A DNA stretch of 53,040 nt from Escherichia phage PO103-1. Below, one piece after another: positions 21,203-53,040 of this stretch. Made by a program: the position numbers and the translations under genes. The stretch lies in the sequence record NC_079175.1, one strand, 5' to 3'. Below the pieces are notes generated by a model. The model was not told where the DNA came from, ran no database searches, and was given only the letters and a program-made list of their open reading frames with translations. Positions within the stretch are counted from its first letter, which is position 1; each line of letters begins with the position of its first letter.

Positions 21203-21228
21203 GTAAATTAATCCGTTTTGTTTGATGA

Positions 21229-21249
21229 GGCGCAACCATTAATTGCGCC
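21229..21249 (-). other. Hairpin between the Ig-like extension stop and the capsid start
   Basis: 7-bp stem GGCGCAA/TTGCGCC with a 7-nt loop. Confidence 0.3.
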
Positions 21250-21257
21250 ATTGCAAC

Positions 21258-21563: not shown

Positions 21564-22024
21564 ACTACGTTAATCATGACCGGGACAACATCGCCAGCGG
21601 AAGCCGGATAACGCAGGGCAGTCAGGTTGGTTGCTTTAGTATACCCAGCACCAACACCGCCAAATTGACCAGTGGCAGATACGCCAATGTCTTTATCGGT
21701 GATTGCAGTTACCAGTTTGACCATGATTGGGCCAGACAGCATAACACCCAGAGGCCAGCCAACTTTGATTGCAACAGTGCCGTCACCAGGACGAGTGGCG
21801 GATTCGATGTTAATCTGGCGCATAGTAATGCCCAGAACAGTGCCATCAGAACCAATACCAGGTTTAACCTGATTAGAGGCTGTACCTTGAACAACAGCCA
21901 GACCAAAGTTTGCCATTTCTTCTTCGGCAACGTAGGTCAAGCGCTGGGAGTTGGTGGTAGCCAGGCCATATTGTTCACCTGCATATGCTTCACCAGTATT
22001 AATAGACCAATCTTGCTTTGGCAT
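21551..22024 (-). CDS. Head protein (putative decoration/capsid-associated)
   Basis: 157-aa ORF between scaffold-like and capsid genes; carries the slippery site at its 3' end. Confidence 0.5.
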   Translation of the reverse strand: MPKQDWSINTGEAYAGEQYGLATTNSQRLTYVAEEEMANFGLAVVQGTASNQVKPGIGSDGTVLGITMRQINIESATRPGDGTVAIKVGWPLGVMLSGPIMVKLVTAITDKDIGVSATGQFGGVGAGYTKATNLTALRYPASAGDVVPVMINVVPKP

Positions 22025-24383: not shown

Positions 24384-24607
24384 TATTTCTTCCTTAGAAT
24401 AGTTCCATTACCCTTAACAATTTGAATGTTGTCGGAGGTGTGGAGTCGCAGATTTGACTCGTGCTTTAACTTAACACAGTCGCTCTCTGTGGTAGAAACT
24501 GCCTCAATCACACATAAAATGTTTCCTTCCAAATCCTGAATCTGGAAGGAGTTGTTCTTGCGTGAGCGGGCATCTAAACGAGTGATAACCGCCATATTTA
24601 CATCCAT
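24383..24607 (-). CDS. Hypothetical small protein
   Basis: 74-aa ORF between terminase and portal. Confidence 0.35.
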   Translation of the reverse strand: MDVNMAVITRLDARSRKNNSFQIQDLEGNILCVIEAVSTTESDCVKLKHESNLRLHTSDNIQIVKGNGTILRKK

Positions 24608-26643: not shown

Positions 26644-26821
26644 AATCCACTAATGGCTGAGTTTGCACGGGATTGATGCGAATGATGCTGCCTAAACCAG
26701 AATCGGCCTTTAAATACAGGCGGTTTAGTGGCATGTATGAATCACAGATAGGACATTGCTGCGTTATGAAATCATCTTCTGCAATTTCATAATGGCAGTT
26801 AGGACATTGTATTGTGCGCAT
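26636..26821 (-). CDS. Zinc-ribbon protein
   Basis: 61 aa with CPNC...CPIC; ATG with GGAG about 8 nt upstream. Confidence 0.45.
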   Translation of the reverse strand: MRTIQCPNCHYEIAEDDFITQQCPICDSYMPLNRLYLKADSGLGSIIRINPVQTQPLVDCD

Positions 26822-31623: not shown

Positions 31624-31869
31624 TTACAGTTGAGTGATAACTAGGGAGAAGTCCAGGTCGTTCATACAAGAGATTAACTCTTGCTCATTGACGACAGGAC
31701 CAGATAAAGTTTTAATGAATGCCTGATACACTGAATTGGTAGCAGAATCACTTCCAAATAATGTTTCAGCATTCTCGGTAATTACAGACAGCACAGCTTC
31801 CCGTGCGTCTTCACCTTTCTTGACAAAATGGAAATGGTCCACTTTGTCGAATATAGATACAACAACCAT
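31624..31869 (-). CDS. Hypothetical protein
   Basis: 81-aa ORF. Confidence 0.4.
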   Translation of the reverse strand: MVVVSIFDKVDHFHFVKKGEDAREAVLSVITENAETLFGSDSATNSVYQAFIKTLSGPVVNEQELISCMNDLDFSLVITQL

Positions 31870-39356: not shown

Positions 39357-39437
39357 TTGTATATACCTTATATTGAATAGTTTTGCACGCCACGGTGACG
39401 TGACTTAGATAAATTAAAGAGCCTTTCTCTTTCCACA

Positions 39438-39454
39438 TCCAACTAATGTTTCAG
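39438..39454 (-). promoter_or_regulatory. Early-region conserved motif copy (minus sense ctgaaACATTAGTTGGA)
   Basis: About 80 nt upstream of 39018..39356. Confidence 0.35.
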
Positions 39455-39478
39455 AACTGCTCTGATTCGACAAACGAC

Positions 39479-40153
39479 TCAATATCTATTGAATCGTTCT
39501 AGTGTTTTATTTACTAAATCCTTTGTCTCAGCGACAGTGAGTTCAGTGATGATTGATTCGTCATAACCCTCAATCTGGATTGCTACAAAACGCCCAACTC
39601 CAGTTACAGTGAGTCGGTTTGTTCTGTCACGAACAACTACACCAGCTTCTTGCGCGACTGCTCGCAACAATTTCCAGCGTAAAGTTCGATTTGGTACAGC
39701 AAAGCCCTTTGCCGAGAACAACTCTTTCATGAGTTCTCCAAGACAAACAGCTTCAATGTTTTGTCCTCTTCCAACTAATTCTTGCAACAGGCACAGTGTC
39801 AACATTTCTAAATTGTTGAAGTGTCCAGCGCGCTCCAAATTAAAGAACTCTGGAGGAACAGTTGAACGAGATTTAACAGCTTGCTTGTATGCACGTTCTT
39901 CTTCCTGTGCAGCAAGCATCAGCATCTCTGGCTTAATGTATTTCATAGCAGAGAAGCCAGCGCGTGTGGCTTTAATTATGCGACAAGCCTCTTTCATCTT
40001 GTAGCGTTGCCACTCACCGCGCTTCGATTCTGGATTAAAATGGACCCACATAATGATAACATCTTCCTTGGCAAGATAGACGGCATCATTATCATTGAGC
40101 CATTGCTTACACGTTGATAGTGCAATCTCTTTGTCATCATCATGATAAGACAT
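39479..40153 (-). CDS. Hypothetical protein
   Basis: Likely start MSYHDDDK at 40153 abutting the upstream gene stop. Confidence 0.45.
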   Translation of the reverse strand: MSYHDDDKEIALSTCKQWLNDNDAVYLAKEDVIIMWVHFNPESKRGEWQRYKMKEACRIIKATRAGFSAMKYIKPEMLMLAAQEEERAYKQAVKSRSTVPPEFFNLERAGHFNNLEMLTLCLLQELVGRGQNIEAVCLGELMKELFSAKGFAVPNRTLRWKLLRAVAQEAGVVVRDRTNRLTVTGVGRFVAIQIEGYDESIITELTVAETKDLVNKTLERFNRY

Positions 40154-40154
40154 T

Positions 40155-40481
40155 TTAGTGGCCTTGTAGGATACGTTTGTTCGCAGTTTCTGCGTCGATT
40201 CCCAAATCAACTAATGTCACCAAGCACTGCGAAATCCGCTCTTGCGCAGCTTTCTCCAGAATTTGGTATTTTTCGTTGTCAATGCCTAACACATTCTTGG
40301 CATGAATGAGTGTAGCCATTAGACCATGACCCAAAGCAACAGCTTGCATTGCCCGGAGTTCAAAGTTAATTGTGATGCCAGCGAGTTCGTGCTCTTTCTG
40401 GATAATCTCAATCAACTCTTCTTTAGATTTGTCCTGTAAGTTCAAAATGGAACTCCGTAAATCGGTTGGTTTGTTGTCCAA
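40155..40481 (-). CDS. Hypothetical protein
   Basis: 108-aa ORF. Confidence 0.45.
   Translation of the reverse strand: MDNKPTDLRSSILNLQDKSKEELIEIIQKEHELAGITINFELRAMQAVALGHGLMATLIHAKNVLGIDNEKYQILEKAAQERISQCLVTLVDLGIDAETANKRILQGH
40207..40220 (-). promoter_or_regulatory. Early-region conserved motif copy (variant)
   Basis: gtgACATTAGTTGAt about 50 nt upstream of the 39479..40153 start. Confidence 0.3.
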
Positions 40482-40762
40482 TTGCGAGTTGCGATTTGCA
40501 TGGACTTGTTTGGGCCGTAGTAGAAATATTTCTTAACTTCGGCAAGGGTGTAGTTGGCACTGCTTTCAAGCAACTCCTTAAAGGTGTGCTTCCAGAATCC
40601 ATCTTTCTCCGACAGACTTACGTGGAAAGAATTAGTGCCGTTATAATACCAACGCCCACCAACGAGAACGAAGTGGATTGTTTCTTCCTCTCCTTCCCCA
40701 CTTGAAGGGAACATTAGTACATTTCTCAACGTCAAAACTTTAGCAGAATGCTTGCGAACCAT
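40442..40762 (-). CDS. Hypothetical protein
   Basis: 106-aa ORF. Confidence 0.45.
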   Translation of the reverse strand: MVRKHSAKVLTLRNVLMFPSSGEGEEETIHFVLVGGRWYYNGTNSFHVSLSEKDGFWKHTFKELLESSANYTLAEVKKYFYYGPNKSMQIATRNWTTNQPIYGVPF

Positions 40763-41403
40763 AGGAACTCTCCAATTTTCGATTCAGTGTTTGTGACTTC
40801 TCTTCTCATCTTTTGGCCCAGGAACAGGCCACAGGGTAGCGCAGGAAGGCCGAAAATCGGGCCGCTGCCTACCGTTTGTGTCAATTCTGGATAACTGCAT
40901 TGGCGAAGGGTTACTCCCGTTAGGGTGCGATACGCTAATCACATGAGTGTTGTCGCCTTGCGGCTCAGGCGTGTCACAGAGGCTTTGCAACCCTTCCCAA
41001 TACATTCACCCAATCCACCTGCTTTGGCATAGCTGGTGGCGCGGTTTTGTGCGGATTATGCCACTCTAAGCCCTGTTTGTCCGACTTCCTCAGAGCACCA
41101 GCAGCTTGTGGCACAAACCTATTTTCGAATGACTAACATAAGCATGAGGCATAACCCTCTAATTATTCAGCCCTAACAGCTTGCTTATTTAGTTCCAATT
41201 CATCCCAATACATCGCCTATAACAAGTGAATAGCTTTTCTGCGAAGAAGTATTCCGGCCCTATGGCCTATGTTAAAAGATAAATGTAATATGATGGAAAC
41301 ATTCCATCGAAAAGAACTTTGTAGAACGAATCGAACGTTCTCACACGCCTTGGTACCAGACGGACTACCTAGTTACAAAGTTCTTATCTGATGTTGTTTC
41401 AAT

Positions 41404-41420
41404 TCCAACTAATGTCGAAT
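41404..41420 (-). promoter_or_regulatory. Early-region conserved motif copy
   Basis: attcgACATTAGTTGGA at the edge of the 40763-41408 non-coding block. Confidence 0.3.
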
Positions 41421-41585
41421 GTCTTTCTTGCAAACAGGACAAGTGATAAATCTATATGCGAAATATCCTCGGTCATTCTTACCTGTGTATATCTTTAAGT
41501 CCGAGAATTCATAAGACACAACAGAAGCACATAACCGACATTGGCGTGTGAAGGTTACTGTATCTTTTTCCAGAACTTTAATCAT
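41409..41585 (-). CDS. Small zinc-ribbon protein
   Basis: About 59 aa from ATG with GGAG 6 nt upstream; CRLC...CPVC pairs; the motif copy overlaps its RBS. Confidence 0.45.
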   Translation of the reverse strand: MIKVLEKDTVTFTRQCRLCASVVSYEFSDLKIYTGKNDRGYFAYRFITCPVCKKDIRH

Positions 41586-41590
41586 TTCAT

Positions 41591-41608
41591 CTCCAACTAA
41601 TGTTTCAG
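41591..41608 (-). promoter_or_regulatory. Early-region conserved motif copy
   Basis: ctgaaACATTAGTTGGAG; its GGAG doubles as the RBS of the zinc-ribbon gene. Confidence 0.35.
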
Positions 41609-41731
41609 AATTATTCCAATATTCCAAACAAAAAGAATAATAAGAATAAATTAAATAAATGAAGAAAGTGCTTGACACCCATTTGGCGATAAGTGTATAA
41701 TGCCTTTCTTCCCTAAGTGGTCAGAATCAAA

Positions 41732-41748
41732 TCCCACTAATGTTTCAG
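41732..41748 (-). promoter_or_regulatory. Early-region conserved motif copy
   Basis: ctgaaACATTAGTGGGA in an intergenic stretch. Confidence 0.35.
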
Positions 41749-41812
41749 ACTAAAGCCGAAGGCCAATGCGAGCACAAAACCCGCTTGGCACTTCGAAGAA
41801 ACCCGCCTGGAA

Positions 41813-42052
41813 CTATAGTGTTTTCCAGTCTGAGTCAAATAGCTCTTTCGGTCGTGTGTAGATAGTAGAAGAATCAATACTCAAGAAAGTATGGTCCCCG
41901 TACTTCTTCACCTCTTGGTAAGCAAACCCATCCACCCAACTTCCGCAGTGAGTTTTAATCTTTGTAGGTCCAAGAATACGATAGAAAGTGTTTCGAGGCT
42001 GGTGGTGAACAATCAATCCAGCCTCAAGTTCAGCGATATTTAAATCACGCAT
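41813..42052 (-). CDS. Hypothetical protein
   Basis: 79-aa ORF. Confidence 0.4.
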   Translation of the reverse strand: MRDLNIAELEAGLIVHHQPRNTFYRILGPTKIKTHCGSWVDGFAYQEVKKYGDHTFLSIDSSTIYTRPKELFDSDWKTL

Positions 42053-42662
42053 TTAAGAATAGTATTCCCTCAGAGAAAATGTAGTCACTTCCATAATCTC
42101 TGGTGATTGCATCCCAATCAATATATGGTGCAAGTCGGCCTGGAATATCCAGTGCCTCACTTTGCTTCAAATATTCTGTAATTGAGTCGCAACGTGTGAT
42201 GAACATGTCGTTCAAATCATCCACAGTGAAAATATCAATCTCACCACTGCGGAATGCTGCAAGAATTACATCCAAATCGGTGTCAACAAGCAGCTCATTG
42301 AACTTATCATATTTACGAATGCTGAATAGCCCATTGGCAAAGCAAACTTCGGTAACATCTTCTTCGTTTGATTCAATTACGTCATATGTGCCGTCTTCTG
42401 GATATTCAATGCCGTATTCTTCATGCAAATACTCCCGCATGTCGAAATCATAGTGACGCCAAGACAGGCCATCAACCCACGCATCTACAAATTCAGAATT
42501 AGTTTCGCCTGTGTAGAAACGAACCAATAAGGTTTCATCTCTACGCCAGGACTTAAGCTGTTCTACTGCTTGAGCAATGTTATCGTTTTGCATTGAGTTT
42601 CTCCCACATACCTTGAAGTTCCGCATTAAGGATTTTGAGCTGTTCAATTCGCTCTTTTCCAC
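42045..42662 (-). CDS. Acidic protein, ArdA-like anti-restriction candidate
   Basis: Strongly acidic; C-terminal PYIDWDAITRDYGSDYIFSEG resembles the ArdA C-terminus as I recall it; true start may be an internal Met. Confidence 0.4.
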   Translation of the reverse strand: MEKSELNSSKSLMRNFKVCGRNSMQNDNIAQAVEQLKSWRRDETLLVRFYTGETNSEFVDAWVDGLSWRHYDFDMREYLHEEYGIEYPEDGTYDVIESNEEDVTEVCFANGLFSIRKYDKFNELLVDTDLDVILAAFRSGEIDIFTVDDLNDMFITRCDSITEYLKQSEALDIPGRLAPYIDWDAITRDYGSDYIFSEGILFLNA

Positions 42663-42870
42663 TCTTCACTAACATGTCTAAGATGGCGGTTTTCTCTTTG
42701 TATGATACTAGATAGCAGCACCTGCCAACCTCAATTTCGTGCCTCAGACTACGAGAATCTTGCACATGATTTGACAAATGCTGGTGGAGTTCTGCCTCTG
42801 CACGAGTCGTACGCTCTTGCATTCGCTCTAGTTCTTTCGGTATTTCCTGATATTCCATCGGATGCTCCAT
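42580..42870 (-). CDS. Hypothetical protein
   Basis: 96-aa ORF. Confidence 0.35.
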   Translation of the reverse strand: MEHPMEYQEIPKELERMQERTTRAEAELHQHLSNHVQDSRSLRHEIEVGRCCYLVSYKEKTAILDMLVKSGKERIEQLKILNAELQGMWEKLNAKR

Positions 42871-42878
42871 TGATGAAG

Positions 42879-43274
42879 TTATGCTGGAAGTTCGAAGTGT
42901 GGTGCATCAAGGAACTTGGCCCATTTCACTGGCTTAGTGAAGGTCCGTTCCCATGTTCCGCCCCAACGAATGACAACTCCAAGCTCTTCTGCGGCTTTGA
43001 ACATGTGTTCAGCTACAATTTGGAATCGTTCGAGGTCATTCCAGTCAATTGGGTACGGCGCAATGTCCAAAGCGTTGCCTGACATGTGTCGGCTAACTGA
43101 AACTTTGGTTGCACCCTGTTTTAACAGTTCTTGTTGACGTTCATAAGAGCGTAAACCTTCCAAAACAGCTACATCAAAAGGCATCGTTTCACATGCACGT
43201 TTGAAAACTGCAACTAATGAAGGATTTACTCCCTTAAGTCGGTCTAAAGAACGTTGACCGAGCTTAACATTCAT
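42879..43274 (-). CDS. Peptidase M15 family cell-wall endopeptidase (T5-type endolysin-like)
   Basis: SRHMSGNALDIAPY, IDWNDLERF and APHFEL closely parallel the T5 L-alanyl-D-glutamate peptidase motifs as I recall them. Confidence 0.75.
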   Translation of the reverse strand: MNVKLGQRSLDRLKGVNPSLVAVFKRACETMPFDVAVLEGLRSYERQQELLKQGATKVSVSRHMSGNALDIAPYPIDWNDLERFQIVAEHMFKAAEELGVVIRWGGTWERTFTKPVKWAKFLDAPHFELPA

Positions 43275-43549
43275 TACTTATCCTTTAGCGCATCGCTTAA
43301 AGTGTTGTTTAACAGTGTGTTGAGGTTATCAATCTCGTCAAATGCTTTCTGAGCCTTGGCAACTTCATCAACAAGTAATGCTCGAAGGACTCCATGCTCA
43401 ATAAGCACCCATCCATCAATACAGTCGATGAAAACCTTAACTTTATCGGCCGGAGCATTTAAATCAAAGGTAGATAAGTCAGATTTGGCATCATCTAGCT
43501 TACCTTTTGCCTTACTTAGTTCAACTGGAACTTGGTCTATTGAAATCAT
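43274..43549 (-). CDS. Hypothetical protein
   Basis: 91-aa ORF, translationally coupled to the M15 peptidase gene. Confidence 0.4.
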   Translation of the reverse strand: MISIDQVPVELSKAKGKLDDAKSDLSTFDLNAPADKVKVFIDCIDGWVLIEHGVLRALLVDEVAKAQKAFDEIDNLNTLLNNTLSDALKDK

Positions 43550-43779
43550 TGAAAGCTATTCCCACTAGGGTGAATGGTTAATTTGAAAGACACTAATTCT
43601 TTATTGATTGAGGTTGTTCCAAGAACTGTTGCCTCAAACAACATAGATTTAGCAGTTTCCTTCCCTACACGTTCCAAGTATTTTACAACTCGGTCGTGAA
43701 TTACTGCCCAATGGCGATATTCGCAATTGGATTCCAGCAGGTATTGAACCCCATCAATAATAAATTCTGTTGAAGTCAT
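43546..43779 (-). CDS. Hypothetical protein
   Basis: 77-aa ORF. Confidence 0.4.
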   Translation of the reverse strand: MTSTEFIIDGVQYLLESNCEYRHWAVIHDRVVKYLERVGKETAKSMLFEATVLGTTSINKELVSFKLTIHPSGNSFQ

Positions 43780-44135
43780 TTCTTCTCCGTACAGCTGGTG
43801 GATAAGACAGGATAGTTTGCTTTGAGGAAATCCCCATCACGGAAAATCTGTAGCACAAGTTTATCTTCATGATTTATAAACAGTGCAGCAAACCTGCTAT
43901 CTTTAATGTTGTAAAATAAAACTGTTGCAGGATTGGGTTCATCACTTGGAACCTCTATCCAAACACCAGCTTCAGGAATTATTGACGCAATCAGAGGTTG
44001 GCTGTCTCCGATGTTATCAACTACAAGAGTATATGCTCCACATTTGAAGTTCTTTGTTGACGCTTTAGACTCAAAGCTGAAGAACGCCAAAACAATTAAT
44101 GCTAAAGTATAAATAATAATGTACTTAAGTTTCAC
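43776..44135 (-). CDS. Secreted/periplasmic small protein
   Basis: N-terminal signal-peptide-like segment (IIIYTLALIVLAFFSFESKA). Confidence 0.45.
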   Translation of the reverse strand: MKLKYIIIYTLALIVLAFFSFESKASTKNFKCGAYTLVVDNIGDSQPLIASIIPEAGVWIEVPSDEPNPATVLFYNIKDSRFAALFINHEDKLVLQIFRDGDFLKANYPVLSTSCTEKK

Positions 44136-44289
44136 AATTAAAACCTCTGAACGATTTTAGATACAGTGTGTAACTTACCTTTATAAAGAATTGCACACCC
44201 AACCATAATAAATTGTGTATTAAGTGTTGAAATTGGCTCGTCAACACCTTCAAGATAAATATCCCACATAAATCCTCCAATAATTAATC

Positions 44290-44315
44290 GAGGCCACTCG
44301 AAGTGGAATGGCCTC
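44290..44315 (-). terminator. Hairpin terminator candidate
   Basis: About 10-bp stem (GAGGCCATTC/GAGTGGCCTC) 6 nt after the stop of 44322..45224, followed by U-rich GAUUAAUUAUU. Confidence 0.45.
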
Positions 44316-44321
44316 TGTTAA

Positions 44322-45224
44322 TTACAGCTTCTTGATAAGCTCTGCGGATTTGTTTGCGGCAGCTTTCATTTCATCGCGCGCGGCTTTAGAGATTGATGCC
44401 TTGTCCACGCGAATATTACAGTTACCAACTGCAATCTTGCCATCTTCTGTTGGCGGAAGCTGAGTTAACTCCAACATTTGCTCCAGCTTTTGCAGAAGAA
44501 TGCGTTGTGCTTCGATTGCATTTTGAATATTTAATGTTTCCATTACTGCTCTTACCTTTCTTGAGAATGTTCCAGTTAATGCCAGCCGTACTTGTAAACC
44601 TTTAATGTTTCCATAGTCTACATTCACTTTATTGGCTGGCGAATGTGGATGTTTGTACACGTTTGTTACAGTTGCCCAATTTCCATTTACCCAAATAACA
44701 TCGCCAACTTCTACATCTTTTCCGAGAACATCTTCTTCATCGGATATTTCCTGCTTCTTGAACTCCTCCACAGGAAGGAATATTGGATTTATTTGGTTTG
44801 GGAACTCAATTGTTGGTGAGTTTGCCATTGGGCCTGGGTTAACAACGTAGACAACCCTACTCTTCACAAAGTCGAAGTACCCTTTCGAGTGATGCAGTCG
44901 AACATCTGAACCATAATCTTCTACGCGAGTAATGTAGAAGAAGTTTACACCATAGCTAAGTGTTTCACCTGCTACAACCATCCCAGCTTTGACTGGAGTA
45001 ACCTTTGGCGCATTTTCATGCTTATCGACAATTTCCACAATCTTGTATGCGTCCAAGTTGAAATATCCTCCATTATATTGCAGTTGTACAATGTTGGCAA
45101 AATGGAGTATCCTTTCTATTAGGTACTCTTTGCAATCGTGCAGGTATATATCACCTTTCGATACCAAATTTACCGGAATTTTGATAGCCTTAGTTCCCAC
45201 GATATTCCTCACGCATTGCTGCAC
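44322..45224 (-). CDS. Hypothetical protein
   Basis: 300-aa ORF followed by a strong hairpin. Confidence 0.45.
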   Translation of the reverse strand: MQQCVRNIVGTKAIKIPVNLVSKGDIYLHDCKEYLIERILHFANIVQLQYNGGYFNLDAYKIVEIVDKHENAPKVTPVKAGMVVAGETLSYGVNFFYITRVEDYGSDVRLHHSKGYFDFVKSRVVYVVNPGPMANSPTIEFPNQINPIFLPVEEFKKQEISDEEDVLGKDVEVGDVIWVNGNWATVTNVYKHPHSPANKVNVDYGNIKGLQVRLALTGTFSRKVRAVMETLNIQNAIEAQRILLQKLEQMLELTQLPPTEDGKIAVGNCNIRVDKASISKAARDEMKAAANKSAELIKKL

Positions 45225-45321
45225 AGTGTTTGCAAACCCAAATGGTTACATAATCGTTTTCGTGTGAAATTTCCCAATTATGTAGCCCTATAAAACATAA
45301 GATTTTCATAGGGCACCTCCA

Positions 45322-45696
45322 TTAGAACGGAATGTCGTCGTCGAAGTCTTTCGGCTCGTTCGGGTTATAATTGCTCTGCTGCTGTTGTTGAGTAGGAGCT
45401 TGCTGTTGCGCAGAAGGTTGCTGGCGTTGCTGTTGCTGTTGAGCGGCAGCTTGAGGTTGAGCTTTGGCTTTAGCTTTCTCTTCACGCTTACGCATCATTT
45501 CATCAACCTGTTCTTGGGTCATGATGGTTAATGCAAGTGAGGTAAACTCATTACCATTTGCTTGCTTATTCCAGCCAGATACCCAATACCAGATTCCGTC
45601 AACGTTAATACGTCCACGAATGTCGGGATGTTTTGGGTCTTTCTTGAAGCCGTTAGGACCGATAATGCCAGTGTTTACATCTGAATATTGTGCCAT
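45322..45696 (-). CDS. Small protein carrying an SSB-like C-terminal tail
   Basis: Gln-rich linker then NEPKDFDDDIPF, nearly identical to the E. coli SSB C-terminal tip as I recall it; N-terminal domain too short for a full OB fold. Confidence 0.55.
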   Translation of the reverse strand: MAQYSDVNTGIIGPNGFKKDPKHPDIRGRINVDGIWYWVSGWNKQANGNEFTSLALTIMTQEQVDEMMRKREEKAKAKAQPQAAAQQQQQRQQPSAQQQAPTQQQQQSNYNPNEPKDFDDDIPF

Positions 45697-45771
45697 GATT
45701 AAGATTCTCTTAAGTTAATTACAGTTTAAGTTTCAGTGACATTGCTAACCACGGAATAGCTTTGTCCCTCA

Positions 45772-45794
45772 TATCCAACTAGTGCTAGATTAAT
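45772..45794 (-). promoter_or_regulatory. Early-region motif copy, extended GATTAATC subfamily
   Basis: gattaatctagcACTAGTTGGAt about 75 nt upstream of 45322..45696. Confidence 0.35.
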
Positions 45795-45825
45795 CAGGAA
45801 CACTCAATGAATGCTCCTTGTTAAT

Positions 45826-46137
45826 TCAACGTTGTTTCTTGGCCCACTCTATTGCAGCCATTATCGTATCGCCGTGGCAGCGAGCTGGGGCACACCAACA
45901 AACTAAATCTTTGCCATCCAATGCTAGCAAATCATCTATTGTTACTTCACCAGATTTAATTTGTTTCCACAAATGCTTGCGATACTCTTCGCACACATAG
46001 TCTCTTTGGCTTTCATTAAACATTTTAAAAGGATTGTGGAATTTCTTGTTTCCAGCAATACCCTTCATATCTCGACCTATATATACTGCGTTGTTGTGAA
46101 CACCTTTAACTTTCGAATAGTTCAGAACTCTTGCCAT
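45826..46137 (-). CDS. DUF4326-like protein
   Basis: VYIGR...NPF and LVCWCAPARCHGD motifs; start MARVLNY at 46137 with GGAG upstream. Confidence 0.5.
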   Translation of the reverse strand: MARVLNYSKVKGVHNNAVYIGRDMKGIAGNKKFHNPFKMFNESQRDYVCEEYRKHLWKQIKSGEVTIDDLLALDGKDLVCWCAPARCHGDTIMAAIEWAKKQR

Positions 46138-46162
46138 CTTTATTCTCCAATTATTATTCACA

Positions 46163-46184
46163 ATCAACTAATGTTAGATTAATC
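46163..46184 (-). promoter_or_regulatory. Early-region motif copy, extended GATTAATC subfamily
   Basis: gattaatctaACATTAGTTGAt about 30 nt upstream of the DUF4326-like gene. Confidence 0.35.
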
Positions 46185-46216
46185 ATGGACACCTACAGGA
46201 GATGCCCATTGTTAAT

Positions 46217-46450
46217 TTAACGAGTCAGTTTGTCAAAGTACCACATATCTTTGGTAATCCACTCACCGCTTGGTGATTTAATGTAGCAACTACCATTGAT
46301 TGTGTATTTGAACTCTGCTTGCTGCAATTCTGCAAAGGTTTTGCATTCATATTTGTATACAAAATATGTAGGCAGTCCAATGACAACCAGAACAGACAGC
46401 AACATTAGTACGAAAGGTACTACAATATCTTTCATAACCCAATTCATCAT
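46217..46450 (-). CDS. Small membrane protein
   Basis: One strongly hydrophobic segment (VVPFVLMLLSVLVVIGL). Confidence 0.4.
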   Translation of the reverse strand: MMNWVMKDIVVPFVLMLLSVLVVIGLPTYFVYKYECKTFAELQQAEFKYTINGSCYIKSPSGEWITKDMWYFDKLTR

Positions 46451-46549
46451 ATCCCCGCTTGTAGAAGGAGTAGGTTTGCAAAACCCAGAATAACTGTGAG
46501 TATAACGACACTGATAGTGAGTGTCAGTATTATATATTTGATACTGTCC

Positions 46550-46837
46550 TCACATTACCTTTGATACAGGAATTGGGTCGATTGTGGTTTCAGGTTTATA
46601 CCAACTTACTTCGCCAGAATCTTTAACAAGCTCCCACAAATTGGAGAATGTACGATAAGATAAATTGCGGTTATCATCATTAACGACAAAACCCAAAGGA
46701 GATTGAATATACGCACCGAGTGTACCGTTGTTGCGAGGAACCCCGTCACCACGACCTGCGACGATTTTGTACTTCTTACCGTAGGTAAAACTGTAATTTG
46801 TTTTACCAACATAACGTAAGATTGAATTCTTGTTCAT
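46550..46837 (-). CDS. Hypothetical protein
   Basis: 95-aa ORF. Confidence 0.4.
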   Translation of the reverse strand: MNKNSILRYVGKTNYSFTYGKKYKIVAGRGDGVPRNNGTLGAYIQSPLGFVVNDDNRNLSYRTFSNLWELVKDSGEVSWYKPETTIDPIPVSKVM

Positions 46838-47121
46838 TTCTTAGCTTTCTCCCATTTGGATAAACCACCTTCAAGATTGAAGATACGATTGCAACCAGAT
46901 TCGTCTTTAATGACAAACTGAGTTCCGGTTAGCTGGATTGGCTCAAGTGAACCAAATATCTTCTTTGGTTTTGACAAGCTGGTGGCAAGAACCACATAAA
47001 CTTTGCTTGGGCAAATGTCGAAAGCAAAGTCACGAGTGTAGACTAAGTCACCAACTTTCAAATATGCTGGTAACAAGCGACCTGTGGCTGGGTCACGTTG
47101 TAAACGAGTACGTTGTTTCAT
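46834..47121 (-). CDS. Hypothetical protein
   Basis: 95-aa ORF. Confidence 0.4.
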   Translation of the reverse strand: MKQRTRLQRDPATGRLLPAYLKVGDLVYTRDFAFDICPSKVYVVLATSLSKPKKIFGSLEPIQLTGTQFVIKDESGCNRIFNLEGGLSKWEKAKK

Positions 47122-47184
47122 AAATGCTCCAAGTTAATTAATAATATTCAGCAACCACTCTCATTACAAAAGTGGTTGAGGAAA

Positions 47185-47415
47185 TTATTTGACTTCTTCC
47201 CAGGACCAGACACTACCTTCCAAGGGGACGCTCTCTCCCGCAGACCAATATGAGTCGCCATAGGAAGTTTTGCGGTCACTGTCTTCTGTGATGTTTATGC
47301 GAGTCTGCACTCCATCTTCGTCTTTAACAGTTACAAGCTCTCCTTCAATAATATCACCAACTTGCGGAGAATATTCAGATGAAGAGGATGATTCTACACA
47401 TTTAAACTTTGTCAT
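47185..47415 (-). CDS. Hypothetical small acidic protein (paralog A)
   Basis: Starts MTKFKCVES; paralogous to the next gene. Confidence 0.4.
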   Translation of the reverse strand: MTKFKCVESSSSSEYSPQVGDIIEGELVTVKDEDGVQTRINITEDSDRKTSYGDSYWSAGESVPLEGSVWSWEEVK

Positions 47416-47639
47416 TGCAATAACCCTTGTTCACAAATATCTGCAAATTCTGCTTCATGGTCACGTTGCCATGTCCAGAATGCACCATTCATAGGCACTA
47501 CAGCGCCTTTACGAAATGCTGGAGAAACATTCTCGGCCGATTTGGTCACTTTAAATTCCAAAGGCGAGATAGCTTCACCCTCAACGATGAAGCCAACTGG
47601 AACATAATCTTTGGTTGAAGCAACACATTTAAATTTCAT
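47412..47639 (-). CDS. Hypothetical small protein (paralog B)
   Basis: Likely start MKFKCVAS at 47639 with AGGTG upstream. Confidence 0.4.
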   Translation of the reverse strand: MKFKCVASTKDYVPVGFIVEGEAISPLEFKVTKSAENVSPAFRKGAVVPMNGAFWTWQRDHEAEFADICEQGLLQ

Positions 47640-47943
47640 GATATAAAACACCTATCTCAGATTTGAGGTTAAATTCACGAAAGAAATCCATTGTTACAAA
47701 ACGGATTTTACCTTCATCATCAACTACGTTACAGGAGATTTCTGAGTGGACCATACGGCCCAACTTCAAAGCAACTTCTGACAGGTTTGCTTCACCAGTG
47801 CCAGAAATCACTTCATAGATTTTATATGGTGTAAAGCCGCTTAAAGAGTTATTACGGCTTGGGACAATCATCATGCCTGTTCTGGTAGCCATAATAACTC
47901 CGGCATTAAAAGTACATGAATGCGCCAACAACAAGCAGCACAA
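47629..47943 (-). CDS. Hypothetical protein
   Basis: 104-aa ORF; true start may be an internal Met. Confidence 0.35.
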   Translation of the reverse strand: MCCLLLAHSCTFNAGVIMATRTGMMIVPSRNNSLSGFTPYKIYEVISGTGEANLSEVALKLGRMVHSEISCNVVDDEGKIRFVTMDFFREFNLKSEIGVLYHEI

Positions 47944-47989
47944 GTGGGAACATCATAATACAGAATACTAGTTTCTTTACAATATCCAT

Positions 47990-48205
47990 TTATTTCACCA
48001 GGAAGTAGAGAACAATAAGGAATCCAACACATGCAATAATGGTTGGCATATAATTATCAATTTTACGATATTGACGTTCGACTGGCTTCTTGCCTTTAAT
48101 GGTGTCCATCAATTCTTGATGATTAATTTGCTGCATGAATGTGTTGAATTGCTGGTCGTTCATTATTTGCCCCTTAGCTTCACATTCTTCCCAACAAGCA
48201 CACAA
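47990..48205 (-). CDS. Hypothetical C-terminally anchored membrane protein
   Basis: 71 aa with C-terminal hydrophobic segment (IIACVGFLIVLYFLV). Confidence 0.35.
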   Translation of the reverse strand: MCACWEECEAKGQIMNDQQFNTFMQQINHQELMDTIKGKKPVERQYRKIDNYMPTIIACVGFLIVLYFLVK

Positions 48206-48208
48206 CCT

Positions 48209-48439
48209 TTAAGCCATCGTGTTTTTTAGATTTGCTGGAAACCAGGATTTAAATTCTTCGGAGTAAACCTTTGTGAAATGGAACTCAGGATTCCCAAATA
48301 CTATGTTAACGATTTTAGCCACCTTACGTGCTGGCATGCGAGGATTTGCAGCTCTTGCTAATTTCTTAGCTTTACGCTTTGAAGCACCATACATAGCCAT
48401 ATATGTAACTGTTTTGGTCATATATTTGAGCTTCTTCAT
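48209..48439 (-). CDS. Hypothetical basic protein
   Basis: 76 aa, Lys/Arg-rich. Confidence 0.4.
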   Translation of the reverse strand: MKKLKYMTKTVTYMAMYGASKRKAKKLARAANPRMPARKVAKIVNIVFGNPEFHFTKVYSEEFKSWFPANLKNTMA

Positions 48440-48606
48440 TTTCCACTCCGAGCAGCATCGAGCTGTTCTTCAAGAAGATTAATGTGTTGGCCCAAGAATA
48501 GGGCCATTTCACGAGAAATTACAGCAGATTTGATTTCTGGATTTTCTGCAATTTGCTTAACACCTTGCAGGAAACTCCAAAGACTCACTTCTTCGTTTTC
48601 GAACAT
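48436..48606 (-). CDS. Hypothetical small protein
   Basis: Hand-found 56-codon ORF (MFENEEVSLWSF...) filling the gap; its stop overlaps the next ATG (ATGA). Confidence 0.3.
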   Translation of the reverse strand: MFENEEVSLWSFLQGVKQIAENPEIKSAVISREMALFLGQHINLLEEQLDAARSGK

Positions 48607-48608
48607 AA

Positions 48609-48845
48609 CTAGCTCTTTATGAAATTGTTAATAAGAGTGTCCATCACTTCGTCTGTGAGAACATCGTCGTTAAATTGCTTGTTGGTGATTTCTATACCAA
48701 ATTCTTTGGCACGATTAACTAATTCACTGGTGGGAACATCAATCCATCCATCGTAGTTAACAACAAGCCTCTCCTTAAGAAATTCGACTTTCTCTTCATA
48801 AGAGGCCAACTCGATTAAGTCGGCCTTCAATTTAAACTGTGTCAT
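48609..48845 (-). CDS. Hypothetical protein
   Basis: 78-aa ORF. Confidence 0.4.
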   Translation of the reverse strand: MTQFKLKADLIELASYEEKVEFLKERLVVNYDGWIDVPTSELVNRAKEFGIEITNKQFNDDVLTDEVMDTLINNFIKS

Positions 48846-49030
48846 TTAGCCTCCAGAATTTGGCTCAATGAACTGAACACGATTTCCTCATGTTCGTCAG
48901 GTGTACATGCGTTGATGTATTCAAAGTCGTAACCAATAAACTTCTCCGCCCACTGTTGCAAACGAAGTAAAGAATTGAAGTACAATCTTTGCTCCACACC
49001 ATTTAACTTAAAGTAGACGATGAAGTCCAT
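48842..49030 (-). CDS. Hypothetical protein
   Basis: 62-aa ORF. Confidence 0.4.
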   Translation of the reverse strand: MDFIVYFKLNGVEQRLYFNSLLRLQQWAEKFIGYDFEYINACTPDEHEEIVFSSLSQILEAK

Positions 49031-49045
49031 GTTTACTCCTATGTA

Positions 49046-49264
49046 TTAAACTTCAATTGGCTCTTGAACTAAATCAGAGGCTGAGATTTCTTTAAACTCC
49101 TCCTCGGTAAAAGTTCTCTCATTGTCATTCAGCAGAACACCAATATTAGAATCACCAACGAATACGGCATTTACATTAACATCATCTTCCAAAACTTTTT
49201 GCAGGTGTTCTCCACCACGCGTAAAGAAGATTGCACCATCTTCCAAATCTTTAAAACGAATCAT
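49046..49264 (-). CDS. Hypothetical acidic protein
   Basis: 72-aa ORF, first gene after the non-coding repeat region. Confidence 0.4.
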   Translation of the reverse strand: MIRFKDLEDGAIFFTRGGEHLQKVLEDDVNVNAVFVGDSNIGVLLNDNERTFTEEEFKEISASDLVQEPIEV

Positions 49265-49553
49265 TTTATTCTCCTAAGTTAAAAGAACTCCCTACAGAAC
49301 GATTGTGGAGGTCTTGTCTTACCTCAATCCACCTTAAAGTTGTAGGGAGTTATATAGTATTCCTGTGTGTGCCGCCATCAGGGACTTCCTAGTCTGGTGG
49401 GCGCGTTGCAATCCAGCAATATACCACACGTTTTTCACAGGCTATATATGTGACACACAAAGTGTCGAAAAACTACAATGATTAGCTTGGAGACATAATC
49501 TCTCTAAAATCTGTCACACAATTTCAGCAGAATTTACAGAGATTTGGTCTTAT

Positions 49554-49574
49554 TCACATGCAACTAATGATAAA
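49554..49574 (-). promoter_or_regulatory. Early-region conserved motif copy
   Basis: tCATTAGTTGCATGTG at the lower edge of the non-coding repeat region. Confidence 0.3.
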
Positions 49575-49586
49575 TGAACATGCTTA

Positions 49587-49602
49587 ATTGCAACTAATTC
49601 AT
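49587..49602 (-). promoter_or_regulatory. Early-region conserved motif copy (degenerate)
   Basis: gAATTAGTTGCAat, tandem with the preceding copy. Confidence 0.25.
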
Positions 49603-49762
49603 CTGCCAAATAGACGAATTTTGTCACAATTAAACATGCACCATTAATTACAGGTTTACTCCCATACTTAACGTATTTGGCACATTAAGATTGGAGCAAG
49701 CAGGTACGGAAAACCGACCATGTACAGCATAATAAAACAAATTAAATAAAGGGTTTTATCCC

Positions 49763-49779
49763 AATATTGTCACAATATT
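49763..49779. promoter_or_regulatory. Palindromic operator-like site AATATTG-tca-CAATATT
   Basis: Perfect 7-bp inverted repeat with 3-bp spacer, followed by TACATGC. Confidence 0.4.
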
Positions 49780-50010
49780 ACATGCGATGATAAAGCCTTC
49801 GCTTGGCTGGAAGCCAGTATTCATGCGGGTTGCAAGAATATTGGGTTAATGCTGATACAGCTATTACATGCGAAATTGGCACAAATACTGTTACAAAATT
49901 AACATGCCAGATTGGTAGACGATTGTATCTTCGAGGTGATTAGTCCTCTAACAATTCTGCCACATTCCAACATGCCAATTTGTAGCAATATTTACATGCC
50001 ATACTGCGAC

Positions 50011-50027
50011 AATATTGTCACAATATT
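50011..50027. promoter_or_regulatory. Palindromic operator-like site AATATTG-tca-CAATATT
   Basis: Identical palindrome; partial copies near 48-62, 49617-49637 and 50192-50208. Confidence 0.4.
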
Positions 50028-50407
50028 TGTTGCTCAAAATCGGGGCGGGCTACGGGATTAGTTTCGCAGCTTTGCTCCGACTCTTCTCTTCTTTCGAATT
50101 CTGATTGAAAGAAAGAAGCATGTCCAAAAGTTCCAATATTATCAAAGTTATCTCCCGGCTTGTGGGTGGGCCTTTATAATAGGAGATGGAGCAATATTGT
50201 CGCAATTGAACATGCTATAGGTGAAGTACAAGTTTCGAATAGATATTCCTACTCTAAGTCATGGTTGCTGGAACTGTAGGTGGCCTACCTAGGGAGTTCA
50301 ATGATTGCCACATCATTACAACACTGTAACTCAAAGCTGACATGCTGAATGTTTCTAGAATGATTCAACATGACATGCGGAATATTTCTCCGTATTCTTT
50401 TACTTCA

Positions 50408-50427
50408 CATCCAACTAATGTTACAAC
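50408..50427 (-). promoter_or_regulatory. Early-region conserved motif copy
   Basis: gttgtaACATTAGTTGGATG between the RNAP-adjacent small gene and the non-coding region. Confidence 0.35.
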
Positions 50428-50495
50428 TGGCTACAATATTGAAGTCAGCTCTAAGATTAATTGGAACAAGAAAAGGGAGCCGAAGCTCCCAAGTA

Positions 50496-50732
50496 TCAGA
50501 ACGGTATCTCTGTATCAAAGAATCCAGAATTGTGCAAATATGCGTGCAATAATACATGCGATTCTTGCTTATATTCTGCTAACAATTCTAAGAAGTCTTT
50601 AGTCTCCTCCACTGTAGGACGAGATAAATTGTTCATGTCACAGGTGTGATGAGGATTGAAACAGTTTTCGATTTGATTGATTTGCATGGTATTCATTGTA
50701 GTCTCCAAGTAGTTGTGGTCATCCTTGACCAA
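50496..50732 (-). CDS. Hypothetical small early protein with C-terminal ...DTEIPF tail
   Basis: 78-aa ORF immediately downstream of the RNA polymerase gene. Confidence 0.4.
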   Translation of the reverse strand: MVKDDHNYLETTMNTMQINQIENCFNPHHTCDMNNLSRPTVEETKDFLELLAEYKQESHVLLHAYLHNSGFFDTEIPF

Positions 50733-50738
50733 TTAATA

Positions 50739-52679
50739 TTATTGACAGAAGTAGTAAGCGTGTTCGCTCATCAGAAGCTCTTCGGTTACGATGTTCTCAT
50801 GATACATCTGAATGCCACCAAGTTGCTTAGACAGATTCTCGAATTGATTGTTGGTTACAAAGATTTCAACATATGCTGCACGAATAACTTCCATCATACG
50901 TGGAGCATCTGCCAAACAGCAACGGAAACAATCATGGATTGAAGTGAAGCCACGAAGACCAGCTTCTTTAGCTTTAACTGCAACAGTACGAGCAACAAGT
51001 GCATCAATACCTTGAATGTAGTTAACAACGAAAGTACGCTTGAATTCTTCTTTAGTTGGATTGGATTCACGAATGGTCCAAGGCTTATTCTCCTGAATCT
51101 GACCAAAGATAACACGAGTTTGGCTGTCAACACGAATGCTGAATGCCTCACAGATTTCACGAGATGGGAAGCAAGGCTTCATTACAACCTGACCATCAGT
51201 GTGACGGTATGTGATGTACTCTTTACCAAGTTCAACACAACGGTTGTATGCAGCATCAGCAGCTTTCTCAATGAACATGTTAATCTTAGCACCCAATGCG
51301 TTATGGATTGCTTCCACACACAGTTCAGCAAATGCCTCAGCTTTCTCCATAGGAATCTGGAGAGCTTCTGTCATGTAGCTAATGAAGTCAGATGAACCAG
51401 TTAATGCAGCTTTACCACCACCGTATTGAATGGCCATGTAAGGAGTTTTGATAAACTTACGACCAGCTTTCGGATTCAAGAATTCATCCATGATTTCAGC
51501 AGATGGTTTCATTGAAGAACGGTCGAGTAACTTCAACAGCTCACGAAGACTCAACTGGTATGGGTCAGATGCTTTAGTCTCAGAATCAACCAGACCTGTT
51601 GCACGAGCCATTTCCATGTTACCAGCAATGAATGCCAGATATTGAGTACCAGAACATTTAGCATCTAATCCAAAGCCTACACGAGAATCGCATTCACCTG
51701 TAGTCTCAAACTTGAACCAATCCAGAGCCAGACGAACATAAGTGAATGGCTTAGAAGGACGTTCAGCTTTAGGCATGTTCATCATGCGAGCAAGTGAACC
51801 AGCTGGATTCTGAGCAACATAAGTTAAACGCTTAGCACTGCACCATTCACCACCAGAAATATCTTCCAGCTCTGCCATGAACATGTTGTATGCAATGGTA
51901 GTAGAACCATCTTCGTTAAACTTCTTAACGATGTTCTCAACATTGTGAGAATACAAGCAACGAGCAAAGTCAGAGGATTGTGGGTTAGGACCAGCACATG
52001 CTACATGATACAGGCGACCACGGTTATCAGCAAAGTAGTCAGAATACAGTGTGTCCTGATTCATCATTGCTACAGCATTGTTCCAAACATGGAGTTCAGT
52101 CTGGATTGCTTCTGGCATCTGCAAGCCACCGTAGGTACGTTGTTCAAGCATGGACTGGATGATGCGAACCATCTCAGTCTCCACATGGTACTCAGTATCT
52201 TGCAGGAATTCGATTGCAGCTTTCAGAGTCTTGGATGGCTTAACTTTGCCACCTTTAACGAAAGGCTTGCGACGAGATTCAGATGTAACACGCTCAGTGA
52301 ATGGCACTGCGGTGTCTTTGGTTGTAACCAGTTCAACCCATGTGTCAGTCTGTTGGAATGACTTGTCTTCGTTCATGGTTATGAAGCCAAAGTGCTTAGC
52401 CAGACCAATGAGGTTGATAGCTGGGTCAACATAGTGCATTGCTTTCAAATCGTTGTTGTAGCGGTTGGCATCAGCAATAGAAGCAGAAGCCAGCTCAACC
52501 ATCGCAATGGCAGGAACAACGTCGTCACGTGTGAAAGACGTCATCATCTTGAATATGGCTAAGGCAGCAATAGCACAAGTCTGAGGCTGCATATAGTTCT
52601 GCTTCTCTTTGGCACGGTATACCAGAGCAGTGATAGCAGGAACAACAGATTTGATAGTTTGAGTGGTGATAGTAGTCAT
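50739..52679 (-). CDS. Single-subunit DNA-dependent RNA polymerase (T7-like, compact)
   Basis: 646 aa; GLDAKCSGTQYLAFIAG, RKFIKTPYMAIQYGGG and SIHDCF parallel T7 RNAP DGSCSGIQHFSAML, RSVTKRSVMTLAYGS and HDSFGT; GGAG 8 nt upstream of ATG. Confidence 0.85.
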   Translation of the reverse strand: MTTITTQTIKSVVPAITALVYRAKEKQNYMQPQTCAIAALAIFKMMTSFTRDDVVPAIAMVELASASIADANRYNNDLKAMHYVDPAINLIGLAKHFGFITMNEDKSFQQTDTWVELVTTKDTAVPFTERVTSESRRKPFVKGGKVKPSKTLKAAIEFLQDTEYHVETEMVRIIQSMLEQRTYGGLQMPEAIQTELHVWNNAVAMMNQDTLYSDYFADNRGRLYHVACAGPNPQSSDFARCLYSHNVENIVKKFNEDGSTTIAYNMFMAELEDISGGEWCSAKRLTYVAQNPAGSLARMMNMPKAERPSKPFTYVRLALDWFKFETTGECDSRVGFGLDAKCSGTQYLAFIAGNMEMARATGLVDSETKASDPYQLSLRELLKLLDRSSMKPSAEIMDEFLNPKAGRKFIKTPYMAIQYGGGKAALTGSSDFISYMTEALQIPMEKAEAFAELCVEAIHNALGAKINMFIEKAADAAYNRCVELGKEYITYRHTDGQVVMKPCFPSREICEAFSIRVDSQTRVIFGQIQENKPWTIRESNPTKEEFKRTFVVNYIQGIDALVARTVAVKAKEAGLRGFTSIHDCFRCCLADAPRMMEVIRAAYVEIFVTNNQFENLSKQLGGIQMYHENIVTEELLMSEHAYYFCQ

Positions 52680-52749
52680 TTGTAAGTCTCCAAGATTGTG
52701 TATGATTTAACTGAAACGGATTATAATAGCGTAGCCATTACACAATTCA

Positions 52750-52770
52750 CTTCCAACTAATATCACAAAC
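52750..52770 (-). promoter_or_regulatory. Early-region conserved motif copy upstream of the RNA polymerase gene
   Basis: gtgatATTAGTTGGAAG about 75 nt upstream of the RNAP ATG; a TATAAT hexamer lies about 30 nt further downstream. Confidence 0.35.

Positions 52771-52975: not shown

Positions 52976-53040
<65 letters not shown>

Follow-up and report, generated by a model that had tools for sequence, protein, structure and literature searches.

In the 53,040-nucleotide (nt) sequence of Escherichia phage PO103-1 (NC_079175.1; this whole stretch is called the window below), a motif of about 22 bp recurs on the minus strand, which carries all of the genes, and we consider it probable from the sequence comparisons that its copies are promoters of the single-subunit RNA polymerase (RNAP) of 646 amino acids (aa) that the phage itself encodes (gp1). 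The window belongs to a GJ1/ST32-like coliphage of the Chaseviridae (Carltongylesvirus), and its early region is 89–95% identical to that of other Carltongylesvirus Escherichia phages (Ecp_YSF, ST32, Bp7, Mangalitsa and phiEcoM-GJ1, hereafter GJ1). We favor the assignment to gp1 because the motif is a single asymmetric block of the length of a T7 promoter, oriented with the genes and placed before genes and after terminators, and because it has no host promoter elements, is conserved where its flanks are not, and changes with the polymerase. On this basis, we infer that gp1 binds the motif. The Chaseviridae are myoviruses with a podovirus-type RNA polymerase, for which the motif is the obvious promoter candidate; the assignment, if true, would settle how these phages are transcribed and would provide a small polymerase and a new promoter for expression systems.

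The motif is a rediscovery of an element already known as a prediction from 2007–2008, not a new feature. Jamalludeen et al. reportedly mentioned, in the 2008 abstract on the GJ1 genome, nine putative phage promoters and a sigma-70 promoter ahead of the RNAP gene. The GenBank record of GJ1 (EF460875) contains nine 20-bp features, "putative phage promoter 1" to "9", whose sequences are the window motif (nnACATTAGTTGGATGTGAA), and, upstream of its RNAP gene, a "putative host sigma70 promoter". These nine sites map to the orthologous window copies 50404, 49553, 45768, 41726, 41586/41398, 39764, 39432, 31747 and 12158 (copies are named by their first position, Table 1); window copies 52746, 46157, 40200 and 26639 are also found in the GJ1 sequence, where they are unannotated. 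What is added here is that the motif is family-wide and syntenic, is coupled to terminators, occurs in late-gene junctions too, and varies in step with the polymerase.

Sequence and Distribution of the Motif

The consensus of 56 sites from seven genomes is cTtnRRCATTAGTTGGAwGTGAA, in which T2, A3, G7 and G13 are invariant. Counted from the A of ATTAGTTG, the information profile of these sites covers positions −7 to +15 or thereabouts, giving an asymmetric block of about 22 bp. In the window, the core ATTAGTTG occurs 12 times, on the minus strand only, compared with 2.15 expected occurrences, and the 17-mer with up to three mismatches occurs 6 times compared with 0.33; the minus-strand location given in a preliminary description of the window was thus confirmed, with complete strand bias. 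A matrix built from the sites of that description recovers them at 22–33 bits, the mean maximum in shuffled sequence being 13.7 bits. To avoid circularity, a second matrix was made solely from the nine annotated GJ1 promoters and applied with a threshold of 14 bits: it gave 13 matches on the gene strand and none on the opposite strand, with a mean of 0.48 matches in shuffled sequence (200 shuffles). Non-coding DNA, 11.5% of the genome, holds 10 of the 13 matches, an approximately sevenfold enrichment, and the next start codon lies 0–390 nt downstream of the copies. The exact 18-mer was found in nine contigs only in IMG/VR, all of 52–57 kb. The motif is real and not a product of chance.

Ten of the eleven copies listed in the preliminary description are good matches, and the eleventh, at 49587 (ATTAGTTGCAATTAAGC), is a half-site scoring below 8 bits. 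Its restriction of the motif to the early region, with none in the replication and structural modules, did not hold: copies lie at 31747–31766, 26639–26658 and 12158–12177, outside the range 39438–52770 to which it had been limited, and an additional match lies within an open reading frame (ORF) at 39764–39783. An equal density in the late region had been named as grounds for dropping the promoter interpretation; late copies do exist, and the density is still about tenfold greater in the first 13.6 kb of the genome.

It should be noted that three matches (39764–39783, 31747–31766 and 40200–40219) are located inside ORFs, that the first of them is conserved together with its coding flanks, and that two copies bracket an insertion–deletion cassette, as would be seen if the motif were a chance product, a residue of coding constraint or a functionless repeat spread by recombination. 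We give this explanation practically no credence and regard it as already effectively refuted, given 13 matches where about 0.5 are expected, the complete strand bias, the enrichment in non-coding DNA, and the persistence of the motif as a conserved island in diverged intergenic DNA of six genera.

Search for Host Promoter Elements

Two readings had been offered in the preliminary description, a promoter set of the phage RNA polymerase and an early host-RNAP signal. The former, which is also the annotation chosen by the GJ1 depositors, is the better supported of the two, and the latter found no support. Between −45 and +60, no −10-like hexamer (TAnnnT) occurs at a fixed offset from the motif, barring one inside it in 12 of the 56 sites, and the region shows no excess of sigma-70-like hexamer pairs (37 against 37.5 expected). 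A sigma-70 promoter was rejected on these two counts, and a T4-type middle promoter (MotA box) was rejected for want of a −10 element at a fixed distance.

An unusual promoter for host RNAP carrying sigma-70 or another host sigma factor would nevertheless agree with the location of the motif ahead of the earliest genes, including the RNAP gene, with hosts that are Enterobacterales throughout and have near-identical RNA polymerases, and with the match of TTGGAT to the −35 hexamer at four of six positions. In view of the missing −10 element at 16–18 bp or at any other fixed offset, the lack of enrichment of sigma-70-like pairs, and the shifts of the motif in concert between phage lineages on related hosts, including the lineage-specific consensus shifts described below for a Proteus phage and 4HA13, we judge such a promoter very improbable.

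The copy upstream of the RNAP gene (52746) had been taken as an argument against promoters of a purely phage-RNAP type. We find this objection weak, because the copy is conserved in four genera (equivalent sites are present in GJ1, 4HA13, PM1 and PA_03) beside a separate conserved −10-like box (TATTATAAT / GGCTACGCTATTATAAT), an arrangement fitting host start-up followed by auto-amplification; because T7 itself has a phage promoter, phiOL, to the left of its early promoters and gene 1; and because the copy is located within a direct terminal repeat of about 3.2 kb. The pairing of this copy with a host-like −10 box suggests that the host polymerase would start expression of the RNAP gene, which would then amplify itself. 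The conserved box reads (A)TGGCTACGCTATTATAATCC and lies at 52690–52745 on the minus strand, with the motif copy on one side and the RNAP start codon on the other; in PM1 and PA_03, the same box is found upstream of the motif. It probably serves as the −10 region of a host promoter from which the polymerase is first expressed.

The Phage RNA Polymerase

The gp1 protein matches Pfam PF00940 (E = 3e-18); its AlphaFold model, with a mean predicted local distance difference test score (pLDDT) of 92.4, matches T7 RNAP in Foldseek (E = 7e-19), and its DxxCSGxQ and HDCF catalytic motifs align with T7 D537 and D812. By these matches, gp1 is a bona fide T7-type polymerase with a T7-like fold. A beta-hairpin of residues 506–537 directly precedes the segment aligning with T7 residue 777 onward and, in the model, occupies the position of the specificity loop. 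The window yielded no other repeated intergenic motif that gp1 could use. The RNAP gene of Mangalitsa and 4HA13 lies within a direct terminal repeat of 3.1–3.2 kb, and window copies 52746 and 50404 are therefore inside the repeat.

Our guess for the transcription start is one of the Gs (GG) of TTGGA, since G7 is invariant, the motif has a length of about 22–23 bp as in T7, and the GGAG at this place is a ribosome-binding site in one copy.

Conservation and Drift of the Motif

We compared the window with GJ1, 4HA13 (Sabourvirus), Faunus (Faunusvirus), PM1 (Suwonvirus), Y2 (Loessnervirus) and PA_03 (Myducvirus); the polymerases of these phages share 66–92% identity with that of the window. In these genomes, the motif lies on the gene strand at syntenic sites, among them the sites on either side of the RNAP gene and those ahead of the SSB and hub genes. 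MAFFT alignments of the intergenic regions show it as a conserved block between diverged flanks in six genera, Carltongylesvirus included. Within a genome, lineage-specific shifts of the consensus recur at several sites, such as TTGAGTGTG in the Proteus phage PA_03 and TTGGAATTGA in 4HA13.

More distant polymerases were taken from metagenomic contigs, and the motif was sought at equivalent positions, with CATTAGTTGGATGTGAA of the window as the reference. At 54% RNAP identity the motif is GYTTAGTTGGnnTTGAA; at 44% it is CATTAGTTGAAtATGGAaATAA and at 41% TTGGGTTGGAAaTGGaa, the latter two being among the top de novo intergenic repeats. At about 33% identity (Nefertitivirinae), the window motif is absent and a hairpin motif, GGCTCTnnCGAGCCAMAAG, is found instead. 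The motif thus changes in concert with the divergence of the polymerase, the relationship being correlative. A loose definition (TTAGTTG..TG) tried for logos of each lineage was dropped, as it was swamped by coding matches.

The Nefertitivirinae motif was found by seeding from intergenic DNA, simple k-mer enrichment having returned coding repeats only. It can be written GGCTCTnnCGAGCC(A/C)AAAG, and its stem varies in a compensatory manner (GGCCC/GGGCC, GCGC/GCGC, GGTTC/GAACC). The gap after the RNAP gene has three copies in tandem, spaced 30 bp apart, and early intergenic DNA has more. In Aeromonas phage pAh6-C the sites are at 23700–24530, 25091, 28892 and 29696, and in Shewanella phage Spp001 at 4330–4470, 10363, 12137 and 31775 (reverse-complement gene-strand coordinates). 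By analogy with the promoters of the N4 virion RNAP, which it recalls, this motif is a candidate hairpin-type promoter of the larger (781–843 aa) polymerases of these phages.

Hairpins and Terminators beside the Motif

For 8 of 13 copies, the 55-nt segment upstream is in the lowest 15% of folding energies. The terminator following the RNAP gene and a 66-aa gene (50465–50490) is also present in 4HA13, and in PA_03 it directly abuts the motif. Ahead of the hub gene, seven genomes have the same order of stop codon, GC-rich hairpin, T-tract, motif and, about 20 nt on, start codon; the hairpin stems differ among the seven, with synteny kept. Copies 45768 and 46157 follow a composite hairpin of the form AATTAAC-NN-[10-bp stem]-NN-GATTAAT, in which the inner stems differ and still pair (covarying); this is the longer palindromic element that the preliminary description had correctly seen to be shared by these two copies (given there as 45772 and 46163). 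In appearance, the composite hairpin resembles a terminator or a processing site of the RNase III type.

The motif itself is not self-paired, and the hairpins are separate elements 5′ of it. Pairing of ACAT with ATGT inside the motif is possible and is not maintained among the sites, and a comparison of the motif with Rfam gave no match; the motif was accordingly rejected as a hairpin, intrinsic terminator or structured RNA element. A role in RNA could also take the form of a processing site, or of a site for a phage RNA-binding protein, acting together with the adjacent hairpins, as in T7 RNase III sites or T4 RegB/RegA. The motif is always on the sense strand, usually adjoins a stable covarying hairpin and in one case overlaps a ribosome-binding site, all of which would suit such a role. 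One copy precedes the first gene and is only some 280 nt away from the end of the genome, others directly follow strong intrinsic terminators, where little read-through RNA is expected, and the distance to the start codon varies from 0 to 390 nt; together with the lost ACAT/ATGT covariation and the negative Rfam result, these data make an action at the RNA level improbable.

Points against the Assignment and an Alternative Phage Factor

Several observations weigh against gp1 as the reader of the motif. The copies at the packaging and tail/baseplate blocks are the poorest matches and those at the earliest genes are the densest, the reverse of T7, and no copy was found ahead of the major capsid gene. 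In the alignment, gp1 has nothing corresponding to about 200 residues at the N-terminus of T7 RNAP, and given this truncation, the capacity of gp1 to recognize and melt a promoter alone is putative. Co-drift is expected for any phage-encoded reader, not for gp1 alone, and the hosts sharing the motif are all Enterobacterales, so that conservation across hosts alone leaves a host factor possible. The profile of the Chaseviridae issued by the international committee for virus taxonomy (ICTV) in 2022 is said to share an author (Kropinski) with the GJ1 genome paper. That 2022 ICTV profile states that the promoters "have not yet been identified". Our search of the Chaseviridae literature turned up neither mapped 5′ ends of transcripts nor results of in vitro transcription or binding experiments; the papers on ST32, PYps23T, Tiny and PP101 are silent on these promoters, and a literature search with the motif string returned no relevant paper.

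The truncated N-terminus of gp1, the drift by phage lineage, the concentration of the motif in the early region and the ICTV statement would all be accommodated if the motif bound another phage-encoded factor, either one redirecting host RNAP or an early repressor or activator resembling a MotA-box protein, with gp1 using other promoters; the early region does contain a few good sigma-70-like sites, such as TTGCCA-17-TATAAT at 45100–45072. Such sites are no more frequent than expected and are not associated with the motif, MotA-type promoters require a sigma-70 −10 element at a fixed distance that was not found, the window holds no other repeated intergenic motif for gp1, and copies are placed right after terminators and at late-gene junctions, as restart points would be. 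We therefore regard a different phage factor as unlikely.

A second, late class of promoters ahead of the major capsid gene was also considered and rejected, since the 350-nt gap there is conserved coding-like sequence with no common motif.

Proposed Scheme of Transcription

If the copies are promoters of gp1, host RNA polymerase would start near the left genome end, transcribe the RNAP gene and one small gene, and stop at the intrinsic terminator 50490–50465. The newly made phage RNAP would then initiate at about 13 motif copies, dense ahead of the small "early" genes and sparse ahead of the replication, packaging and tail/baseplate blocks. With most copies directly after a terminator-like or processing hairpin, transcription would restart after each structured 3′ end, and positive feedback would arise from the copy that precedes the RNAP gene.

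A wider reading joins these elements, and we put its chances at about even. It holds that a compact 646-aa T7-type RNAP lacking most of the N-terminal promoter-binding domain would use the motif as its cognate promoter, would transcribe essentially the whole genome, including, unlike T7, the "early" genes of host takeover, and would boost its own expression through the promoter in the terminal repeat; promoter and polymerase would have co-diverged stepwise, ending in the hairpin-type promoter of the Nefertitivirinae. If this is true, the family would offer a graded natural series of orthogonal promoter/polymerase pairs.

Comparison with Known Systems

The closest system is the GJ1 promoter set, with the same motif in the same 20-bp frame at orthologous positions; the window differs in that a 58-aa gene stands between two copies at the place of a single GJ1 copy, and in the extra copies that are unannotated in GJ1.

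The motif shares with the promoters of the T7 group (T7, T3, SP6, K11; 23 bp, −17 to +6) an asymmetric layout in one block of about 22 bp that is not divided into −35 and −10 parts, an intergenic location co-oriented with the genes, and many copies at early and DNA-metabolism genes with few before the late blocks. As in T7, the polymerase is phage-encoded, and its gene, the first that host RNAP would reach, has a terminator behind it; the T7 layout meant here is reportedly that of Dunn and Studier 1983. In contrast to the T7 group, the motif has no sequence similarity beyond a loose ACAyTA, its late-block copies are the weakest, whereas the T7 late promoters are the strongest, one copy sits directly ahead of the polymerase gene, and gp1 is about 240 aa shorter than T7 RNAP, mostly in the N-terminal promoter-binding domain.

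T4 middle promoters (MotA box with a sigma-70 −10 element) resemble the motif in that a phage-specific sequence replaces the −35 element before pre-replicative genes; they need a TAnnnT −10 element 11–13 bp downstream, which is absent at the window motif. The promoters of the N4 virion RNAP are likewise promoters of a phage-encoded T7-like polymerase driving early genes, but they are small DNA hairpins, whereas the window motif is not self-complementary and shows no covariation of pairs. A hairpin motif of the N4 type does occur in the other Chaseviridae subfamily, the Nefertitivirinae.

Individual Copies and Neighboring Features

Table 1. Polymerase gene, motif copies and hairpins of the window in order of descending position.
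Feature	Positions	Strand	Situation	Score or remark
Copy TGATATTAGTTGGAAGTGAA	52746..52765	-	66 nt upstream of RNAP start codon, within terminal repeat	21–25 bits
Single-subunit RNA polymerase gene (gp1), 646 aa	50739..52679	-	Presumed reader of the motif	Pfam, AlphaFold, Foldseek, catalytic motifs
Intrinsic terminator GGGAGCTTCGGCTCCC-TTTTCTTGTT	50465..50490	-	After RNAP gene and 66-aa gene	~45 nt upstream of next copy (50404)
Copy TAACATTAGTTGGATGTGAA	50404..50423	-	GJ1 "putative phage promoter 1"; head of ORF-less gap	29–31 bits; syntenic in 6 genomes
Copy TATCATTAGTTGCATGTGAA	49553..49572	-	GJ1 promoter 2; 288 nt upstream of first small early gene	25–28 bits
Composite hairpin	46178-46216	-	Directly 5′ of motif	z-scores of the three composite hairpins, −3.4 to −5.2
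Copy TAACATTAGTTGATTGTGAA	46157..46176	-	19 nt ahead of start codon of 103-aa ORF, after hairpin 46178-46216	Matrix match
Composite hairpin	45789-45825	-	Directly 5′ of motif	See 46178-46216
Copy TAGCACTAGTTGGATATGAG	45768..45787	-	GJ1 promoter 3; upstream of SSB gene, after hairpin 45789-45825	Syntenic in 7 genomes
Composite hairpin, third copy	44280..44325	-	Followed only by degenerate motif remnant (ATTATTGGAGGA)	AATTAAC-[10-bp stem]-GATTAAT; see 46178-46216
Copy AAACATTAGTGGGATTTGAT	41726..41745	-	GJ1 promoter 4; after very stable hairpin (−24 kcal/mol, 0.2th percentile)	Matrix match
Copy AAACATTAGTTGGAGATGAA	41586..41605	-	GGAG inside is Shine-Dalgarno of 58-aa ORF 41409-41585	Like arrangement in Faunus, PM1
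Copy CGACATTAGTTGGAATTGAA	41398..41417	-	3′ end of 58-aa ORF	Matrix match
Copy TGACATTAGTTGATTTGGGA, weaker	40200..40219	-	In last 60 nt of 96-aa ORF, upstream of 224-aa ORF	20–23 bits; kept in GJ1, 4HA13, Y2
In-ORF match AAGAATTAGTTGGAAGAGGA, doubtful	39764..39783	-	GJ1 promoter 6	In all genera along with coding flank TGTGC.TG.TGC
Copy AAACATTAGTTGGATGTGGA, best match	39432..39451	-	GJ1 promoter 7; 75 nt upstream of 112-aa ORF, after 12-bp hairpin	28–33 bits
Copy AAACATTATTTGGAAGTGAT	31747..31766	-	GJ1 promoter 8; inside 81-aa ORF after DNA polymerase gene, 139 nt before next gene	22–24 bits
Copy AGCCATTAGTGGATTGTGAT, weak	26639..26658	-	Just upstream of large terminase gene	16–17 bits; identical in GJ1, similar in Faunus
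Copy TAACATTATTTGAATATGTA	12158..12177	-	GJ1 promoter 9; between 1,223-aa ORF and baseplate hub gene	18–22 bits; directly after GC-rich hairpin and T-tract

The overlap of one copy with the ribosome-binding site of a small gene, pointed out in the preliminary description, was borne out at 41586–41605. This copy and 41398 bracket the 58-aa gene as a cassette that is absent from GJ1, where a single hybrid copy (promoter 5) is found; the 58-aa gene is present in Faunus and PM1. The sequences suggest that the cassette was gained or lost through recombination between promoter copies. The match at 39764–39783 may be conserved solely through protein-coding constraint. The 1,223-aa ORF preceding copy 12158 is labeled "putative tail fiber" in GJ1 and "virion structural protein" in 4HA13 and PM1.

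Other Features of the Window and Its Relatives

The RNAP operon is followed by an ORF-less gap of about 1.2 kb (49265–50495, minus strand) containing about 13 copies of GCATGT, which resembles the 3′ half of the promoter motif, and CAATATTG / TTGTGACAATATTG palindromes. The gap with its repeats occurs in all Chaseviridae examined, including the contigs with 54% and 44% RNAP identity, and the right boundary of the terminal repeat lies inside it. It may be a replication origin or a region of packaging or end formation.

Homopolymers of A occupy both window ends (1–34, 34 bases; 52977–53040, 64 bases). If the ends were joined, the gene strand would carry about 98 consecutive T bases; the corresponding place in GJ1, beside its annotated sigma-70 promoter, reads just TTTTTATTTTT. 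These homopolymers are probably an artefact of assembly or library preparation, or the record was cut within a T-run near the physical left end. ARAGORN found zero tRNA genes in the whole window; in the equivalent region, GJ1 and some relatives have a tRNA-Arg whose intron is putative.

The apparent 350-nt gap before the capsid gene (21203–21550, minus strand) follows the TAA stop codon of a 157-aa ORF (21551–22024) and is conserved across genera. It is annotated as a small ORF in some relatives, and a conserved hairpin (GGCGCAATTAATGGTTGCGCC) closes it immediately ahead of the ribosome-binding site for the capsid gene; an extension of the 157-aa protein into it by read-through or frameshift is possible.

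Homologues of gp1 with 35–52% identity (P0074, P0079, P0107, P0116) lie on large Hafnia, Lelliottia and Pseudomonas contigs of 0.14–6.3 Mb, which suggests that relatives of these phages, supposed to be strictly lytic, have integrated there or are contaminants. Integrase genes are present on the contigs with 54% and 44% RNAP identity.

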